This document shows positions 3,912 to 45,979 of a DNA stretch of 55,424 bases, piece by piece (within the stretch, counting starts at the first letter, position 1; each line of letters opens with the position of its first letter). Both the position numbers and the translations under genes were made by a program. The notes below the pieces were generated by a model, which made no database searches, was not told where the DNA came from, and saw only the letters and a list, made by a program, of their open reading frames with translations. Source of the stretch: Bacteroidota bacterium (GTDB lineage: Bacteria; Bacteroidota; Ignavibacteria; UBA10030; SZUA-254); the NCBI GenBank assembly GCA_030019075.1, contig JASEHD010000001.1:1-55424 (forward strand). The letters run 5' to 3'.

Positions 3912-4905
3912 AATTCTGATTCTGGGAGAGCTCCCCCTGAATGTTTCCTTCCAATTCTAAAATTCTCTTCTCAATTTCTTCCCCAAGCTCAGGTCTATTT
4001 TGTTTAAGTAATCGGTATGTTAATATGGCTTCTATATATTCACCTTGCGAGGCGTAAATCTCGGCAAGTGTCCCGCTGACGATCCGACCATCATCTTCAT
4101 CCGTTTTTAGTATAACGGGTTCAATGTAAACATCATTGTCAGCTATCTGGTTCTCGGTTTGCGAATCAACGTCATGCTCTTGGTTTTCACTTATTTCTAT
4201 CGTGTCTTCGTCAGATGAAACTGGCTGCTCGATTTCTGTTTTCGCTTCGATTAATTCTAATTTATCGGATTCATTATTGGCGATAAATGTTTCTTGAGTG
4301 GAAGGAATATCTGCAACAGCTTGAATGATTTCATTTTTATCTGTGGATTCGATCGGGATTTCGGTTTCAATTGTTGGAACTGCGATCAAATTTTCCTCAG
4401 TACATGCAGATTCATGTCCAATCTCTAAAGATAGATTCGTTTCCTCAAGAATTTTTGATTGCTCGATTTCTATAGCAGGACATAAAACAATCGGTTCTTC
4501 AGTGTTGGTCGAATCATATTCCTCAACTGAAGGATATTCGATTAGCTGTTGGGCTGAAAGATTGTCTTCAATTTGTAGATTTGTGTTTAAACTATCGGGT
4601 GTTTGTTCTGAATCGATAAAATCTTGTATTTCAGATCGAAGCGAGATTAGTGTTGTCGTATTCGGGTTGAGTGAAATTGCGTAGTCGATTGATTCGAGTG
4701 CTGCAGTGTAATCTTGGTCTTTAACATAACACTCGGCTAATGCAAAATGTGCTGTTATGTATTGCGGATATATTTCTAATCCTGAGATGCAAAGTTTTTT
4801 CGCTTCCTGATTTTTTCCGGCCATCAGATACTCGTGGACAAGTCGTGCGAAGAGCGGTGAAAACGGGCGGCGTACCAGCTTATGTTCTAAGTATTCGATT
4901 GTCAA
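3910..4905 (-). CDS. TPR-containing protein with acidic linker
   Basis: N-terminal TPR helices, E/D-rich middle, C-terminal TLAEIYASQGEY motif. Confidence 0.75.
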   Translation of the reverse strand: MTIEYLEHKLVRRPFSPLFARLVHEYLMAGKNQEAKKLCISGLEIYPQYITAHFALAECYVKDQDYTAALESIDYAISLNPNTTTLISLRSEIQDFIDSEQTPDSLNTNLQIEDNLSAQQLIEYPSVEEYDSTNTEEPIVLCPAIEIEQSKILEETNLSLEIGHESACTEENLIAVPTIETEIPIESTDKNEIIQAVADIPSTQETFIANNESDKLELIEAKTEIEQPVSSDEDTIEISENQEHDVDSQTENQIADNDVYIEPVILKTDEDDGRIVSGTLAEIYASQGEYIEAILTYRLLKQNRPELGEEIEKRILELEGNIQGELSQNQN

Positions 4906-6378
4906 TTATTTTACCATCGATAGTTTACGAGCCATCCAGGCATGTCGAATCGAAAGCCATGCGACGAGACCGAATCCCATCGTAAAAAGTAGCTGAAACG
5001 GCAGGGCGGCAATTTCTAAATAATAGATTGAGGATATCACACCAAAAAAACAATACATCGCTAAGAGCAGCTCGATGATGACGGTATAGTTAAACTTCTT
5101 GAGAACGTATTTTTTATCAAGCCAGGTATCTTTTTTGTCGATCACGGAATATTTTGGTGTTCTCACAAACTCAGATTTTTTCTTAATTAACCCTTCGATA
5201 ACAGCTTTTGTGTTGTTTACCGCGAATCCCATACTGCCTGCCATAAAGAGGGGGAAGAGCAGCATTCGTTTTCGCCAATCATGATAGACATCCTTTTGAG
5301 AGTAAAGGTAGAAGAGGAACGAGCCAATAAAAGCAAACACGAATATCGCCATGATAGCGAAGTATGTTTCGTACCCACCTTGATGTTTAATAAAAATAAG
5401 TGGAACGTTTAATATGCCTGCGAGTAAAATAAATGGGAAAACAATATTGTTAGAAAGATGAAATGTTGCGTGAAGTTTCTTTTCAAATGGAAGATCAGAT
5501 TTCCAGACGCGGGGAAGAATTTTTCGCGCCGTTTCAATTGCACCTTTCGTCCATCTAAATTGCTGTGATTTCAATGCATTGATTTCCGATGGCAGCTCGG
5601 CAGGAGATGTAACATCATTTAAGAATTTAAATTTCCATCCGCGCAATTGTGCCCGATAGCTTAAATCTAAATCTTCGGTTAGAGTGTCAGCTTCCCAGTT
5701 GCCCGCATCGAAGATACATTCTTTACGCCAGATGCCACCCGTACCATTGAAATTGATAAAGAACCCTGCTTTATTCCTTACATTTTGTTCAATAACGAAA
5801 TGTCCATCGAGCGCCATTGCCTGGATACGAGTCAGAAATGAATACTCTCTATTGAGATGTTCCCATCTGGTTTGAACCAGCCCAACTTTTCGATTTTGAT
5901 AGAAATATGGTAATGTATCATTAAGGAAATTTTTTGGTGGGATGAAATCTGCGTCAAAAATAGAAATAAACTCACCGCGTGCAGTGATGAGTCCATATTT
6001 AAGAGCACCCGCTTTAAAACCATCGCGTGAACCACGTCTCACATGCTTAATGTCGAATCCTTGGTTCTGGTATTGATCCACAAGCTCTTTTATGAGATCT
6101 GTTGTCTCGTCCGTAGAATCATCGAGCACTTGAAACTCAATCTTCTCTTTAGGGTAGTCGATTGCGCATGCTGCCTTCAACAACCTGTCGACAACATAAT
6201 ATTCATTATAGACTGGTAATTGAATTGTAACCTCAGGGAATTCCTTTAACTCACCCGCAGATTCATGTTTTTTATCTCTATGTTTGAGATAATAGAAAAT
6301 CATTACGAAGCCGCTCGAACCAAAAAGAAAGAGAATTGAAAGAGAGAAGAAATATGTACCAATTATAAAATCTTGCAT
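4906..6378 (-). CDS. GT2 cellulose-synthase-like membrane glycosyltransferase
   Basis: QLPVYNE, FDADF, TEDLDL, QQFRW (QxxRW) motifs and TM helices. Confidence 0.9.
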   Translation of the reverse strand: MQDFIIGTYFFSLSILFLFGSSGFVMIFYYLKHRDKKHESAGELKEFPEVTIQLPVYNEYYVVDRLLKAACAIDYPKEKIEFQVLDDSTDETTDLIKELVDQYQNQGFDIKHVRRGSRDGFKAGALKYGLITARGEFISIFDADFIPPKNFLNDTLPYFYQNRKVGLVQTRWEHLNREYSFLTRIQAMALDGHFVIEQNVRNKAGFFINFNGTGGIWRKECIFDAGNWEADTLTEDLDLSYRAQLRGWKFKFLNDVTSPAELPSEINALKSQQFRWTKGAIETARKILPRVWKSDLPFEKKLHATFHLSNNIVFPFILLAGILNVPLIFIKHQGGYETYFAIMAIFVFAFIGSFLFYLYSQKDVYHDWRKRMLLFPLFMAGSMGFAVNNTKAVIEGLIKKKSEFVRTPKYSVIDKKDTWLDKKYVLKKFNYTVIIELLLAMYCFFGVISSIYYLEIAALPFQLLFTMGFGLVAWLSIRHAWMARKLSMVK

Positions 6379-27285: not shown

Positions 27286-28481
27286 TGATGGCAGACTATG
27301 AAGTAAAACAGAAGATTATGTTCATCAGTTTGTATTCCGAAATCGGAGGTGGTGAGATTGGTTTATTTCATTTATTGAAAAATATAGATAAATCACTTTT
27401 TCAACCTATCGTTATGTTCAATAAGCATGGTCCGTTGGTAGAGAAGTTGGAAAAAATAGGAATCCAAACAACGATTGTACCGTTCGTTGTTGCAATGCTG
27501 CAACAATGTATTATTCCAAGAATATTTTGGAGTAATTTCAAAGCTTCATGGGAAATAAAAAGCTACATAAAAAAACAGCGAATCGAAATTGTCCAGTGCA
27601 GCGATGTTCTATCCCTTCTTCTGCTTTTTCCTTCTATGCTTTTAAATCGCACACCCATCGTATTTAGCGTTATCTTTTTTTATGAGAAACTGCGTGCCTT
27701 TCTTCTCACTTTGCTTTCTATGTTTAGTGTAAAGTATATTGTAACGTTATCTTCGATGGTGATGAATGATTTGACGGAAAAAACCTTCGGATTGAAAAAA
27801 AAGGTCAAGCTTATTTATTGGGGTGTCGATACTTCTAAATTTCATGGAAGAATAGTTGAGGAGAAACAGCGGCTGCGCGAAAAACTTGGATTACCTCTGA
27901 ATAAAAAGATTATTGGCTTTATCGGAAGATACGAGGTCTGGAAAGGACATGAGACGTTTCTGAATACTGCAAACCAGCTGATCAAAACAAGAAACGATTT
28001 ATTTTTTCTTATCGTTGGCGGTGCAATGACCGAGAATATTATTCCAAGTATTGCTAGTTACCGTAAAAAAGTGATCAAACGTATTGAAGATTTAAAACTG
28101 CAAGGTCGCTTAACGGTATGGGGACACAGAGACGATATTCCTGATGTAATGGGAAGCTTAGATGTTTTTGTCTGCCCGTCAGATCATGAGCCATTCGGAC
28201 TGGTGGTGCTTGAAGCGCTCGCGAGCGGTGTGCCTGTGGTTGTCAGCTCAACCGTTGGTGCGCTGGAAGTTCTCGATAGAATTGAAAACGTATTTGTCGC
28301 CGAGCCGCGCAATCCGATTTCTTTCTCGGACAAGATTACTGACGCATTGGAATTAAATAAAAAAATATTAAGCAGCCAACAATCGCAGCGTTTACTCGAT
28401 GTGCTAAATCAATTATCATGGACTGCCTATTCAAGTAAATACGAACAAATTTATCAAAATCTTTTATCGAATCCGATGTAG
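27282..28481 (+). CDS. GT4 glycosyltransferase
   Basis: GGGE, FIGR..WKG, EPFGLVVLEALASG; stop TAG lies inside a REP GTAG. Confidence 0.92.
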   Translation: MMMADYEVKQKIMFISLYSEIGGGEIGLFHLLKNIDKSLFQPIVMFNKHGPLVEKLEKIGIQTTIVPFVVAMLQQCIIPRIFWSNFKASWEIKSYIKKQRIEIVQCSDVLSLLLLFPSMLLNRTPIVFSVIFFYEKLRAFLLTLLSMFSVKYIVTLSSMVMNDLTEKTFGLKKKVKLIYWGVDTSKFHGRIVEEKQRLREKLGLPLNKKIIGFIGRYEVWKGHETFLNTANQLIKTRNDLFFLIVGGAMTENIIPSIASYRKKVIKRIEDLKLQGRLTVWGHRDDIPDVMGSLDVFVCPSDHEPFGLVVLEALASGVPVVVSSTVGALEVLDRIENVFVAEPRNPISFSDKITDALELNKKILSSQQSQRLLDVLNQLSWTAYSSKYEQIYQNLLSNPM

Positions 28482-28872
28482 CCGCAAGCTTATTTATCCG
28501 CTCGACGAGTCGAATCATCGACCTCCCGCCAAAAAAGGCGGCGGGCAAGCTGGCGGAATGCTTGCGTGGTTGCCAAATACGCAACCTACAAAAGATACCT
28601 GTCGTAGCCGCAAGCTTCACGCCTGCGGGTGCTGTCCACAACGCAACTATAAAGGCGATGTCCTGAGGATTCAGTCCGAAGGATCGCGGCTACAAAAGAA
28701 CCCCGTCGTAGCCGCAGGCTTCACGCCTGCGGGTGCTGTCCACAACGCAACTATAAAGGCGATGTCCTGAGGATTCAGTCCGAAGGATCGCGGCTACAAA
28801 AGAACCCCGTCGTAGCCGCAGGCTTCACGCCTGCGGGTGCTGCCCACAACGCAACTATAAAAGTTGCGCTAC
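28478..28872. repeat. REP/BIME-like array left of RAYT-1
   Basis: GTAG-ccgcaggc-ttcac-gcctgcg units at 28478, 28604, 28708, 28812 (104-bp period for the last three) alternating with inverted cgcaac..gttgcg-CTAC units. Confidence 0.92.
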
Positions 28873-29348
28873 GACCATTCGTCGAAATTGTAAACAGTGG
28901 AACCTTTGTGTGGGAATTGTTTCCAATCTACCACGATTCCTTTCCGGACAGGGTTTTGTAAAATGTATTCGATTTGTTTCCGAAGGTCTTCGCTGTTTCG
29001 TATGATATGGTCGTAATAATCCTTCTGCCAATGAAATTCATGTCGATGTTGATACAACCAATAACCGGTTCGTTGTTTGAATCCGTTAACCATTTTTAAA
29101 ATGTTTGCATCATCAGATTTTCCTTCGATGATCAGATGTAAATGATCCGGCATGAAAAGATACATGTGAATATCGCATTGTTGCCTGTGCGCTTCTTCTA
29201 ATAATGTATTTCTGAAATATTCCACGATGTTGTTATTCGTGAAAACCGATTTTCTTTCTTGAACGCACAGTGTAAATACAACGATTTGGTGCCCCGTATA
29301 ACACTCAGGTGTCAATCGATGATGTTTTTCCCGTATTATCTTTCCCAT
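28869..29348 (-). CDS. REP-associated tyrosine transposase (RAYT / TnpA-REP, HUH Y1)
   Basis: MPDHLHL HUH motif, WQKDYYDHIIR, YILQNPVRKG; flanked by GTAG REPs. Confidence 0.92.
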   Translation of the reverse strand: MGKIIREKHHRLTPECYTGHQIVVFTLCVQERKSVFTNNNIVEYFRNTLLEEAHRQQCDIHMYLFMPDHLHLIIEGKSDDANILKMVNGFKQRTGYWLYQHRHEFHWQKDYYDHIIRNSEDLRKQIEYILQNPVRKGIVVDWKQFPHKGSTVYNFDEWS

Positions 29349-29354
29349 GGTTTT

Positions 29355-29383
29355 AATATATTACATTCAATTAAAAAAATCAA
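29355..29383 (-). promoter_or_regulatory. Promoter of RAYT-1 (probably leaderless mRNA)
   Basis: TTGATT-N17-TATATT, 6 nt before ATG, no SD sequence. Confidence 0.65.
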
Positions 29384-29395
29384 AGCCAACCCGCC

Positions 29396-29648
29396 GTAGC
29401 CGCAAGCTTATTTATCCGCTCGACGAGTCGAATCATCGACCTCCCGCCAAAAAAGGCGGCGGGCAAGCTGGCGGAATGCTTGCGTTGTTGCCAAATACGC
29501 AACCTACAAAAGATACCTGTCGTAGCCGCAGGCTTCACGCCTGCGGGAGTCGCCTCCACACGCAACCATAAAGGCGTTGTCCTGAGGACTCAGTCCGAAG
29601 GATCGCGGCTAAAAAAGAACTCCGCCGTAGCCGCAGACTTCTTTATCC
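29396..29648. repeat. REP array right of RAYT-1 (direct copy of 28478-28700)
   Basis: GTAG REPs at 29396, 29522, 29627 (last one truncated). Confidence 0.9.
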
Positions 29649-29734
29649 ACCCCCAACCTCCTGTTTAAATAATCCATTAGGGGAAGGGGTCAAATTGTTA
29701 TCATCATAAAGCATCACCAACTGCTTGTGACAAA

Positions 29735-29780
29735 ATATTAAAATTAATGCTTGAACTCCATCAAAAAAGTTGGTAAATTA
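29735..29780 (+). promoter_or_regulatory. 46-bp direct repeat copy 1 containing a sigma70 promoter
   Basis: 45/46 identical to 31024-31069; TTGAAC-N17-TAAATT. Confidence 0.8.
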
Positions 29781-29802
29781 AGTACACATCCTTTTCCCAT
29801 TT

Positions 29803-30198
29803 ATGCTTGAGCAGAAAATTATACAATTTTTTAAAAACATAGACGCAGCAGTCGCAGTTTACCTGTTTGGTTCAGCAGGAACTGAGCATGAGCGATCTGA
29901 CAGCGACATCGATGTGGCAGTCTTATTTATAGCCGATACTGTGCCAGATGGTTTGCAGCTCGTTCAAATGCAGCAAGATCTCACTGATTTTTTAGTGAAC
30001 GAAGCCGATATCGTTTGCTTGAATAAAGCTAATGTTATTTTGAAAATGCAAGTCTTAAAAAAGGGGAAAAAGTTGATTGATCGCGACCCCCGCACTACAA
30101 ACATGTTCTTCACACGGACGATTAATGAATATGATGATTTGAAACGTATTCGCAAGCCAATCGAATCGCAAATTCTAAGAGGAGGGCTGCATGGTTGA
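29803..30198 (+). CDS. MNT (minimal nucleotidyltransferase) antitoxin, MntA-like
   Basis: YLFGS..SDIDVAV motif; overlaps the downstream HEPN gene. Confidence 0.9.
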   Translation: MLEQKIIQFFKNIDAAVAVYLFGSAGTEHERSDSDIDVAVLFIADTVPDGLQLVQMQQDLTDFLVNEADIVCLNKANVILKMQVLKKGKKLIDRDPRTTNMFFTRTINEYDDLKRIRKPIESQILRGGLHG

Positions 30199-30616
30199 TA
30201 ACGATCTTATCATTTCGAAAATTAAAAGCATTCAGAAATGTCTTAAGCGGATTAAAGATGTAACCCGCTTTGACCCGAAAAGTTTAGAAGATATTGACGT
30301 GCAGGATATTTTTACTTTAAACCTCCAACGCGCAATACAATCGACTTTGGATTTGGCATCACATATCGTTGCATCGGAAGGATTTGGTATGCCGGATTCT
30401 CTTAAAGAAGATTTCATCATCCTCGAAAAAGCGAATATCATTTCTCGTGAGCTAACGAATAAAATGGTGAAGATGGTTGGCTTCAGAAACATTGCCGTTC
30501 ATGAGTACCAGGAACTTGACGTTGAAATGCTCAAATCTATTCTTCAATATCATATTACCGATTTGGAAGAGTTTTATACAGCCATCGTAAAACATTTTGC
30601 CGTAAATCATCCCTAA
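30191..30616 (+). CDS. HEPN (DUF86/HepT-like) RNase toxin
   Basis: GFRNIAVHEY (Rx4H). Confidence 0.9.
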   Translation: MVDNDLIISKIKSIQKCLKRIKDVTRFDPKSLEDIDVQDIFTLNLQRAIQSTLDLASHIVASEGFGMPDSLKEDFIILEKANIISRELTNKMVKMVGFRNIAVHEYQELDVEMLKSILQYHITDLEEFYTAIVKHFAVNHP

Positions 30617-45368: not shown

Positions 45369-45701
45369 ATGATGGAAGATAAGTTATTTCAAAATAAAAT
45401 AGATAAGGGTGGTTATAAAATCCATCGTGAAATGAAAGCGATGTGTTATCACGGGCACACGTACACCGTTAGTGAACTCGTGAAACGTTGTACAAATGAA
45501 GGTCTTGGCTGGAGATTGGTTGAGCAGAGATATTCGTTCACAGAAATGGTAAGAGATTTATTCAGTTTTAAAATTTACCGTCAATTACTTAATGGTATAA
45601 AGAATAATCAGATCAAGCATATTTCAGAATTGATGTTTCCTACCATCCGTCCATTGTTCGTATATATTGGGAATCGTTTTATTAAGCGGTATGTCAGGTA
45701 G
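45369..45701 (+). pseudogene. Short ORF, possible remnant of a methyltransferase-like gene
   Basis: 110 aa, operon-oriented, no recognisable catalytic core, ends next to the REP cluster. Confidence 0.35.
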
Positions 45702-45725
45702 CTACAGCGTGGAAACAAACCTGAT

Positions 45726-45921
45726 GTAGTCGCGGACTTTTTTATCCGCCTCCCGCCAAAAAAGGCGGCGGGCAAGCTGGCGGAATGTCTGCGTGGTTGC
45801 CAAATACGCAACCTACAAAAGATGCCTGTCGTAGCCGCAAGCTTAATGCTTGCGGGAGTCGCCTCCACACGCAACCATGAAGTCGTTGTCCTGAGGACTC
45901 AGTCCGAAGGATTGCGGCTAC
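45726..45921. repeat. Third copy of the RAYT-1 REP block
   Basis: GTAG REPs at 45726 and 45831, inverted unit ending CTAC at 45921. Confidence 0.9.
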
Positions 45922-45979
45922 ATTCAGATAACACCCACGACTTGTAAAAGTGATAATCAATTCCTACATTTGGCTTGTT

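Follow-up and report, generated by a model that had tools for sequence, protein, structure and literature searches.

A REP hairpin loop probably enlarged by successive insertions of very short hairpin-forming repeats in an Ignavibacteria genome

Among the repeat families described so far, the small dispersed repeats (SDR) of heterocyst-forming cyanobacteria (Nostoc and relatives) appear to be the closest precedent for the short units considered in this work. Elhai and colleagues reportedly described them in 2008 as units of about 21-27 nt, some of which form hairpins, nested in their own copies and in minitransposons, and are said to have proposed that they are the smallest mobile elements, with an RNA intermediate. 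The Rickettsia palindromic elements (RPE), about 100-150 bp long, are likewise palindromic and are found in frame in protein-coding genes. According to the accessible part of PMC5861425, SDR5 inserts in HIP1 and no SDR was found outside the Nostocaceae (the SDR study is also cited in the accessible part of PMC3116915), and in the organelles of Volvox carteri palindromic repeats insert into one another (PMC2670323, accessible part). Regarding the hairpins of repetitive extragenic palindromic (REP) sequences, long self-complementary loops, with an inner loop of up to 27 bp, are known from E. coli and Bradyrhizobium, and the accessible part of that study does not explain them as insertions of independent repeat families (PMC3733652). 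Here we analyse a stretch of 55,424 nt (hereafter the window: positions 1 to 55,424 of contig JASEHD010000001.1, assembly GCA_030019075.1) from a Bacteroidota bacterium of the Ignavibacteria, known from a 3.18-Mb draft genome (226 contigs, 39.5% GC, 98% complete), and in particular three REP hairpins that lie beside or near a gene for a REP-associated tyrosine transposase (RAYT). Our main conclusion is that the loop of this REP was probably enlarged by three separate insertions of very short, GC-rich, hairpin-forming pieces; two of these, called U21 (21 nt) and H15 (15 nt) in what follows, are dispersed families of repeats.

These units resemble the cyanobacterial SDRs in size (U21 has 21 loci in unrelated contexts, and H15, with 47 loci, is shorter) and in their nesting, U21 lying inside H15-type and other small hairpins and H15 lying inside the REP loop. 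They differ in phylum and in sequence, in standing in frame in housekeeping genes, in the invariant C on the 5' side of U21 and in that no reverse transcriptase (RT) gene was found in this genome. The confinement to Nostocaceae does not apply to them either, since 76 of the 80 U21 matches listed carry the labels of Ignavibacteria-, Bacteroidota- or Chitinophaga-type metagenome-assembled genomes. The RPE share the in-frame insertion into genes, but are far longer than U21 or H15. The Volvox carteri repeats, as far as the accessible part of PMC2670323 goes, differ in being organellar, with a mean of 50 nt, and in lying in intergenic DNA and in those parts of introns that are outside open reading frames.

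Each of the three hairpins is GTAG-tagged, and their loops are extended by 65, 65 and 44 nt. The two longer inserts (28493-28557 and 29411-29475) are the same string, the shorter one (45741-45784) corresponds to this string without TCGACGAGTCGAATCATCGAC (28502-28522 and 29420-29440), and the 44 nt common to all three are identical at 44 of 44 bases, exactly as a first-pass annotation of the window had described these sequences. Their parts are the following (the caret marks a point of insertion):

28478-28566, forward strand: first composite REP, in the +65 state; GTAG tag and left arm at 28478-28492, insert at 28493-28557, right arm ATGCTTGCG at 28558-28566.
28493-28501, forward strand: left part of the first-level insert, TTTA + TCCGC; its right part is CT (28550-28551) plus GGCGGA (28552-28557).
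28502-28522, forward strand: U21 copy TCGACGAGTCGAATCATCGAC, inserted at TCCGC^C, with one mismatch to TCGACGAGTCGAGTCnTCGAC (G13 to A) and A at variable position 16.
28525-28549, forward strand: second insert, 25 nt, CCCGCCAAAAAAGGCGGCGGGCAAG, with a register ambiguous by 1-2 nt; private to this genome.
29396-29484, forward strand: second +65 composite REP, 48 nt upstream of the RAYT start; U21 at 29420-29440 and 25-nt insert at 29443-29467.
45726-45793, forward strand: composite REP in the +44 state; stem GCGGAC/GTCTGC, insert at 45741-45784, 25-nt insert at 45752-45776, no U21.

In the first +65 REP the segment TCCGC ends at 28501 and CTCCCGCC resumes at 28523, after U21. H15 is thus nested in the REP loop, and two neighbouring inserts lie within H15, U21 following TCCGC and the 25-nt piece following TCCGCCT, meaning that the composite loop comprises three events and only two nesting levels. 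The idea of successive insertions into a hairpin, put forward in the first-pass annotation, stands in its core, but not in the detail that each insert had landed in the previous hairpin, given that U21 is located at TCCGC^C of the first-level hairpin, beside the second insert. When folded as single-stranded DNA, the 89-nt +65 REP reached -20.5 kcal/mol (z = -2.5, with 4 of 200 shuffles equal) and displayed, from the outside in, the REP stem, a TCCGC/GCGGA stem and two inner hairpins side by side. The REP in the +44 state has the stem GTAGTCGCGGAC...GTCTGCG, unlike that of the +65 REPs. At 45831-45854 an empty REP is found, in which GTAGCCGCAAGCTTA is joined to ATGCTTGCG (GTAG-tagged GTAGCCGCAAGC-TTAAT-GCTTGCG); its hairpin folds at -10.6 kcal/mol (0 of 200 shuffles as good) and the whole doublet to which it belongs at -22.8 kcal/mol (z -4.9). 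This copy had been taken for the pre-insertion state; it makes up, however, the second REP in the same composite unit and is thus a paralogue.

An intermediate state is preserved in a sister species, a same-genus genome among the relatives (sampled at one genome per species, 41 genomes in all). The homologous RAYT region of this species contains three REPs whose loops hold TTTA + TCCGCCTCTGGCGGA, with C changed to T in one copy. The complete first-level insert, 19 nt long (TTTA plus the H15 hairpin TCCGCC-TCT-GGCGGA), is therefore intact there, and the level-1-only form (+19), whose search had been advised in the first-pass annotation, is the loop state of these three REPs. They are adjoined by empty REPs (GCAGAC-TTTAT-GTCTGC). 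The left flank of a +19 locus matches window positions 45369-45922 at 69% over 562 nt (the RAYT matches 28866-29404 at 84%) and, given these matches, one sister-species +19 REP is the positional orthologue of the +44 REP, so that the difference of 25 nt is a true indel at one site. The 44 nt, earlier read as one nested pair, represent two events, +19 and then +25. In an in-register alignment (A1) the series runs from 0 through +19 (the three sister-species REPs) and +44 (one window REP) to +65 (two window REPs), and all four of these states exist.

The innermost unit is not restricted to the REPs. When the window was searched against the relatives, only a 21-nt stretch matched, in other contigs and in other genera; it follows the pattern TCGACGAGTCGAGTCnTCGAC, of which the inner 21-nt unit of the window is a diverged copy. 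At up to three mismatches to TCGACGAGTCGAGTCGTCGAC, U21 has 21 loci in the genome (about 0.05 would be expected by chance, by our estimate), its conservation ending one C beyond each side, and the reversed-pattern control gave 0 matches in this genome and 1 across the 41 genomes. U21 is present in 24 of the 41 genomes (0-20 copies, this genome being the richest), with perfect copies in 12, and an exact scan with one genome per species found it in at least 116 stretches. The occurrence of the 21-nt unit in unrelated contexts, which the first-pass annotation had wished to see checked, is hence confirmed (at least 19 other loci here and 23 of the 40 other genomes). The contrary outcome, that inner units never occur independently of the outer one, does not hold for U21, and the outer H15 has 47 loci, whereas the 25-nt piece was found in 0 of 40 relatives.

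Real genes contain 13 of the 21 loci, on either strand and in at least five reading frames (GRRLDSS, VDDSTRR, RRVESST, SMSRVVD and LDESSRR), which indicates that U21 is a DNA unit and not a protein motif. In pdxA it accounts for a gain of exactly 7 amino acids (21 nt), missing from the orthologues in 29 of 29 relatives. The polA gene is 39 nt longer than in the same-genus genome, the excess being U21 plus a TCCCGC-TTCG-GCGGGA hairpin, and the corresponding loop has no extra residues in 26 of 29 relatives (the others have +2, +4 and a different 12-residue tandem insert). The aroB product is 11 amino acids longer than in 29 of 29 relatives, at a site with both U21 and the H15 hairpin. A further copy, in a batD-like gene, is common to the sister species and diverged at 2 of 21 positions; thus, old and young copies coexist. 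Judging from these comparisons, U21 seems to have been inserted in conserved genes as a precise 21-nt unit, in one orientation and without duplication of more than 1 nt. The DNA polymerase I loop itself is a recurrent insertion-tolerant site; the same surface loop has a tandem SYESRVT-SYESRIT insert in another genus and four extra residues in a third (L051 G036, L029 G002).

The surroundings of U21 are equally constrained. On the 5' side, C precedes 20 of 20 copies of this genome and 27 of 27 copies of the relatives, the latter found with a pattern that included no flank; on the 3' side, C follows 18 of 20 and 22 of 27 copies, respectively, and G follows none. Position -2 is only biased (C or T in 23 of 27). 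From the constant 5' C and the mostly present 3' C, we infer that the insertion of U21 has a single orientation with respect to a C^C step. The pdxA gain fits equally well a unit of 20 nt, nearly palindromic, plus one duplicated C. Complementary flanks, which place a copy within a hairpin, occur in 20 of 129 U21 copies, whereas in 200 control permutations their number averaged 6.9 and did not exceed 15. The hosting hairpins are small repeats of several kinds, the commonest being TCCGC^C-NNN-GGCGGA, that is, the same site as in the window, which is also occupied by U21 at C191:239 and C181:7929, more loosely at C70:902, and in many other genomes. Another host, in several other genomes, is the larger repeat cattctga-TCCCGCC..GGCGGGA-gaagaatc. 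At C134:557-594 a TTTA-TCCGC...GGCGGA-ATG frame lies outside any REP and contains a 16-nt U21, lacking one GAGTC (5 nt), without the 25-nt piece.

The outer hairpin also belongs to a family. H15 (TCCGCC-NNN-GGCGGA) has 47 loci here (reversed-pattern control 0) and is found in 39 of the 41 genomes, with 0-112 copies. In a ranking of all 6-3-6 hairpin stems of the genome it comes first, followed by CCCGCC (18), CCGCTC and AACCTT (12 each) and TACGCC (8), the most frequent stem of a shuffled-genome control being T6, with 10. Open frames of at least 150 amino acids hold 32 of the 47 loci, compared with 1726 of 2000 random sites, a count in which some loci near N-termini may truly be upstream of the gene; 25 of these 32 copies share a single phase, which reads S-A-x-G-G. 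At H15 sites, pepA has gained 3 and an hpnD-like gene 4 amino acids with respect to their orthologues, the hairpin being missing in 5 of 5 relatives for each, and one copy in an ABC-transporter gene is common to one other genus. In comparison with orthologues, H15 sites thus mark lineage-specific gains. A clean 15-nt insertion was considered and rejected, the gains being +3 (pepA), +4 (hpnD-like) and, together with U21, +11 amino acids (aroB).

Several observations on H15 and related hairpins were made along with these counts. Four head-to-tail H15 pairs (30 nt, SAxGG-SAxGG; C66:20495, C66:29625, C88:35102 and C134:74) occupy the loop preceding a (P/S)SG(V/L/M)Y motif in the type-9-secretion C-terminal domains of four proteins. 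More small hairpin families exist, with 3-nt loops (CCGCTC, AACCTT, TACGCC) or 4-nt loops (TCACCG, TTGCCG, GCATTC, GTCGGA), example loci being C168:9782, C218:5099, C225:10863 and C156:17527. In C156 a TCCCGCC-AAA-GGCGGGA hairpin lies within the loop of another GTAG-like hairpin. The sister-species mpg gene (L219) is split across two contig ends (G001:C65 and G001:C17) at the loop which here holds U21 and H15, consistent with an assembly break at a repeat.

Based on these data, the following history can be proposed. In a first step, before the split from the sister species, TTTA and the H15 hairpin (TCCGCC-TCT-GGCGGA) would have entered the REP loop (+19); in a second, confined to this lineage, 25 nt (CCCGCC-A6-GGCGGCGGG-CAAG) would have entered the loop of the H15 hairpin (+44); and in a third, U21 would have been inserted next to the 25-nt piece, at the TCCGC^C site of the H15 hairpin (+65). 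For the REPs of the window, the order +19, +25, +21 seems to be the most parsimonious one. Afterwards, a block of 160 nt with the U21-bearing REP would have been copied so as to flank the RAYT gene. Direct repeats of 160 nt (97% identical), each containing a composite REP, lie on either side of this gene, and for this reason the two +65 copies record one event, copied later. Loops may persist as sites of insertion in this way because U21 would prefer C^C in small hairpins and because an insert in the loop would spare the REP stem and the GTAG tag.

Some of our own findings weigh against such a simple succession. The REP-free frame at C134:557 has the truncated U21 without the 25-nt piece, and therefore the order in which step 2 precedes step 3 is not universal. 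Stems differ among the REPs that carry the same insert (in this genome GCAAGC and GCGGAC, in the sister species GCAGAC and GCAGGC), which implies that conversion from REP to REP, or movement of the whole insert, must also have occurred. The gains linked to H15 in pepA, hpnD-like and aroB are not exactly 15 nt, as already mentioned. Finally, step 2 may be a local event and not the arrival of a mobile unit, because no copy of the 25-nt piece was found except in the three REPs: CCCGCCAAAAAAGGCGGCGGGCAAG occurs in none of the 40 relatives at up to 3 mismatches, and in a metagenome scan with its 20-nt core all 11 matches were in unrelated contexts, with GC of 0.30-0.71. As true copies these 11 matches were rejected, being judged chance or terminator-like.

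This last point leads to the alternative that survives best, namely that the inner pieces, and chiefly the 25-nt one, grew locally, inside the REP cluster, through slippage, template switching or strand transfer mediated by RAYT. The 25-nt piece, unique to these REPs, resembles the CCCGCC-NNN-GGCGGG hairpins of the genome (18 loci), with A3 turned into A6 and GGC duplicated, and it ends in the heptamer GCAAGCT, which is shared with the REP left arm and allows an alternative pairing with the right arm. We nevertheless regard local growth as unlikely, since it leaves U21 and H15, with their consensus copies in unrelated loci and genera, unexplained, and since even the 25-nt piece is identical across REPs with different stems.

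Less probable still is a series of deletions, in which the +65 loop would be ancestral and the +44, +19 and empty loops would have arisen through precise palindrome loss by replication slippage. Palindromic segments are deletion-prone, and the 5 nt lost by U21 at C134:557 indicate that partial loss does occur. Against this direction of change, U21 is derived in pdxA and aroB (absent at the site in 29 of 29 relatives) and in polA (absent in the same-genus genome), and all three sister-species REPs are in the +19 state, which matches the standard 3-nt-loop form of the 47 H15 loci; moreover, parsimony favours two gains over three independent precise losses. That the long hairpin is instead a functional element, selected as a DNA or RNA structure (for instance, for control of RAYT expression or for recognition by RAYT), its likeness to repeats being secondary, is very improbable, because, even though composite REPs adjoin RAYT in both species and the shared 44 nt are identical in spite of different stems, an Rfam scan of 28000-30000 at E up to 1 gave no match save a chance miRNA (E 0.91), the fold z-score is only -2.5, the insert state varies between sister species and among copies in one genome, and its parts can be shown to be copies from repeat families that occur throughout the genome.

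With successive insertion as the preferred reading, the nature of the mobilising enzyme can be considered. The precise gains, the fixed 5' C, the lack of duplications of more than 1 nt, the preference for hairpins and the consensus kept in many genera look, in our analysis, like hallmarks of a sequence- and strand-specific process acting on single-stranded DNA, of the kind carried out by HUH/Y1 enzymes. RVT_1 genes were searched for and none was found in this 98%-complete genome, 12 of the 22 genomes that lack an RT contain U21, and there is no correlation between the number of RVT_1 genes and the counts of the two repeats (rho 0.04 and 0.06). An RT motor was accordingly rejected as the leading idea, with other RT families and unassembled repeats remaining possible. 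Strand-specific, duplication-free insertion and the missing RT point weakly to an HUH/Y1 enzyme, and our best guess, a tentative one, is the mobilisation in trans of single-stranded DNA by a genomic HUH/Y1 transposase.

The counts of Y1_Tnp genes correlate with those of U21 and H15 (Spearman 0.48 and 0.45, n = 41), and 7 of the 8 genomes without Y1_Tnp have no U21. In a relative (G008; L278, C108:23800-28766), inverted repeats of 97 nt (758-854 and 4827-4923, 95% complementary) flank a Y1_Tnp gene and contain U21 14 nt from their outer ends, beside CTGTAG; this Y1_Tnp gene is split in two by a gene for a sensor histidine kinase of 1041 amino acids. Y1/HUH enzymes cut on the 3' side of a defined base; the left junction of U21 is C^T, and E. 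coli TnpA-REP cuts between C and T, according to the accessible part of PMC3479197. Other points limit the case for a Y1 enzyme as motor. The correlation was computed across related, non-independent genomes, and is therefore overstated and may reflect a general tolerance of repeats. In addition, H15 flanks 0 of the 7 Y1_Tnp loci in this genome, and U21 is near the RAYT of the window only. The idea that one individual Y1 gene in this genome is directly tied to H15 or U21 was rejected, since each such gene is flanked by hairpins of its own with 4-nt loops, none of them H15 or U21 except at the window RAYT. The 'cacc-U21-ctgtag' junction seen in G008 was found again in genome G022.

The behaviour of U21 may recall the IS200/IS605 family, whose members insert without target duplication, in a single orientation relative to a short target and in dependence on hairpin DNA, but U21 holds at most one hairpin (5-7 bp) and not two subterminal ones, and its target is a single C instead of a tetra- or pentanucleotide. 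Miniature inverted-repeat transposable elements (MITE) are defined by terminal inverted repeats and target-site duplications and usually exceed 50 bp, whereas the present units have 15-25 nt and no duplication of more than 1 nt. In its boldest form, our proposal would be that U21 and H15 are live, non-autonomous single-strand elements, the smallest yet seen, which are moved in trans by Y1/HUH enzymes and inserted strand-specifically at hairpin-exposed C^C, and which act in parallel across an Ignavibacteria-like order, nesting hairpins where the DNA is non-coding and adding loops of 5-7 residues to essential proteins (DNA polymerase I, PdxA and AroB among them); as a whole, we hold this to be possible and rather doubtful.

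The presence of 15-21-nt repeats also inside essential genes, here and in relatives, suggests that they are among the smallest mobile DNA known. If units of this size truly move, the lower size limit of mobile DNA would shift down, and a transposition machine would need to recognise no more than a single flanking C and one small hairpin. The REP loop is unusual in that all intermediates of its nested growth survive, some of them at an orthologous position in the sister species, so that the likely order of events can be read from it directly. Through in-frame insertion into polA, pdxA and aroB the units would naturally give rise to small additional loops in proteins, and they may serve as a practical marker to date and type lineages of a poorly known, mostly metagenomic group. 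No occurrence of the U21 or H15 motif strings was found in the literature searched, and the best 10 of 62 literature matches for Ignavibacteria together with REP, RAYT or MITE hold no mention of Ignavibacteria (supplementary files may list further REP loop variants).

The structure that hosts the composite loop seems to be an ordinary, if small, REP-RAYT unit (REPtron), as judged from its sequence. It shares with known REPtrons the RAYT gene, the GTAG-tagged hairpins on both sides and the REP doublets, whose inverted form is referred to here as REPIN. Its features, besides the composite REPs, are:

28586-28861, forward strand: tandem array of a 104-nt REPIN unit (2.7 copies), which separates the first composite REP from the RAYT gene.
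28869-29348, reverse strand: RAYT gene (159 amino acids); Pfam Y1_Tnp at 1.7e-11 and NCBIfam NF047646 REP_Tyr_transpos at 98.4 bits (cut-off 80).
29627-29651, forward strand: truncated REP, GTAGCCGCAGACTTC followed by TTTATCCACC, which retains only the left edge of the first-level insert.
45831-45921, forward strand: REPIN (doublet GTAGCCGC...GCGGCTAC), with the empty REP as its first hairpin (45831-45857).

In the RAYT protein, an H-L-H motif and Y-I-L-Q-N-P are legible in the translation. GTAG-tagged GTAGCCGC hairpins flank the gene at 28478, 28604, 28708, 28812, 29396, 29522 and 29627, and the inverted doublets GTAGCCGC...GCGGCTAC are found at 28604-28693, 28708-28797 and 45831-45921, plus in C149 and C195. 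The genome has 49 matches to GTAGCCGC, and REPs are located only at the two window clusters, at C149:42120 and at C195:6817. Compared with known REPtrons, which usually have many dispersed REP copies, the REP family is therefore tiny here (four loci genome-wide), and its loop parts are traceable to a repeat family or to a dated indel. Y1_Tnp matches number seven in the genome, each with its own flanking hairpin family (4-nt loops).

At the sister-species locus L002, RAYT and REPs together occupy the site whose flank matches 45369-45922; here this site has REPs only, the RAYT lying 16 kb away (at 28.9 kb), and the arrangement suggests that the REP-RAYT unit was either relocated, or duplicated with a later loss at one of the two sites. 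Directly downstream of this cluster, in the window at 29803-30616, a nucleotidyltransferase gene (Polbeta/NTP_transf_2, 131 amino acids) overlaps a HepT-like RNase gene (141 amino acids), the two forming a toxin-antitoxin pair of the MNT-HepT type.

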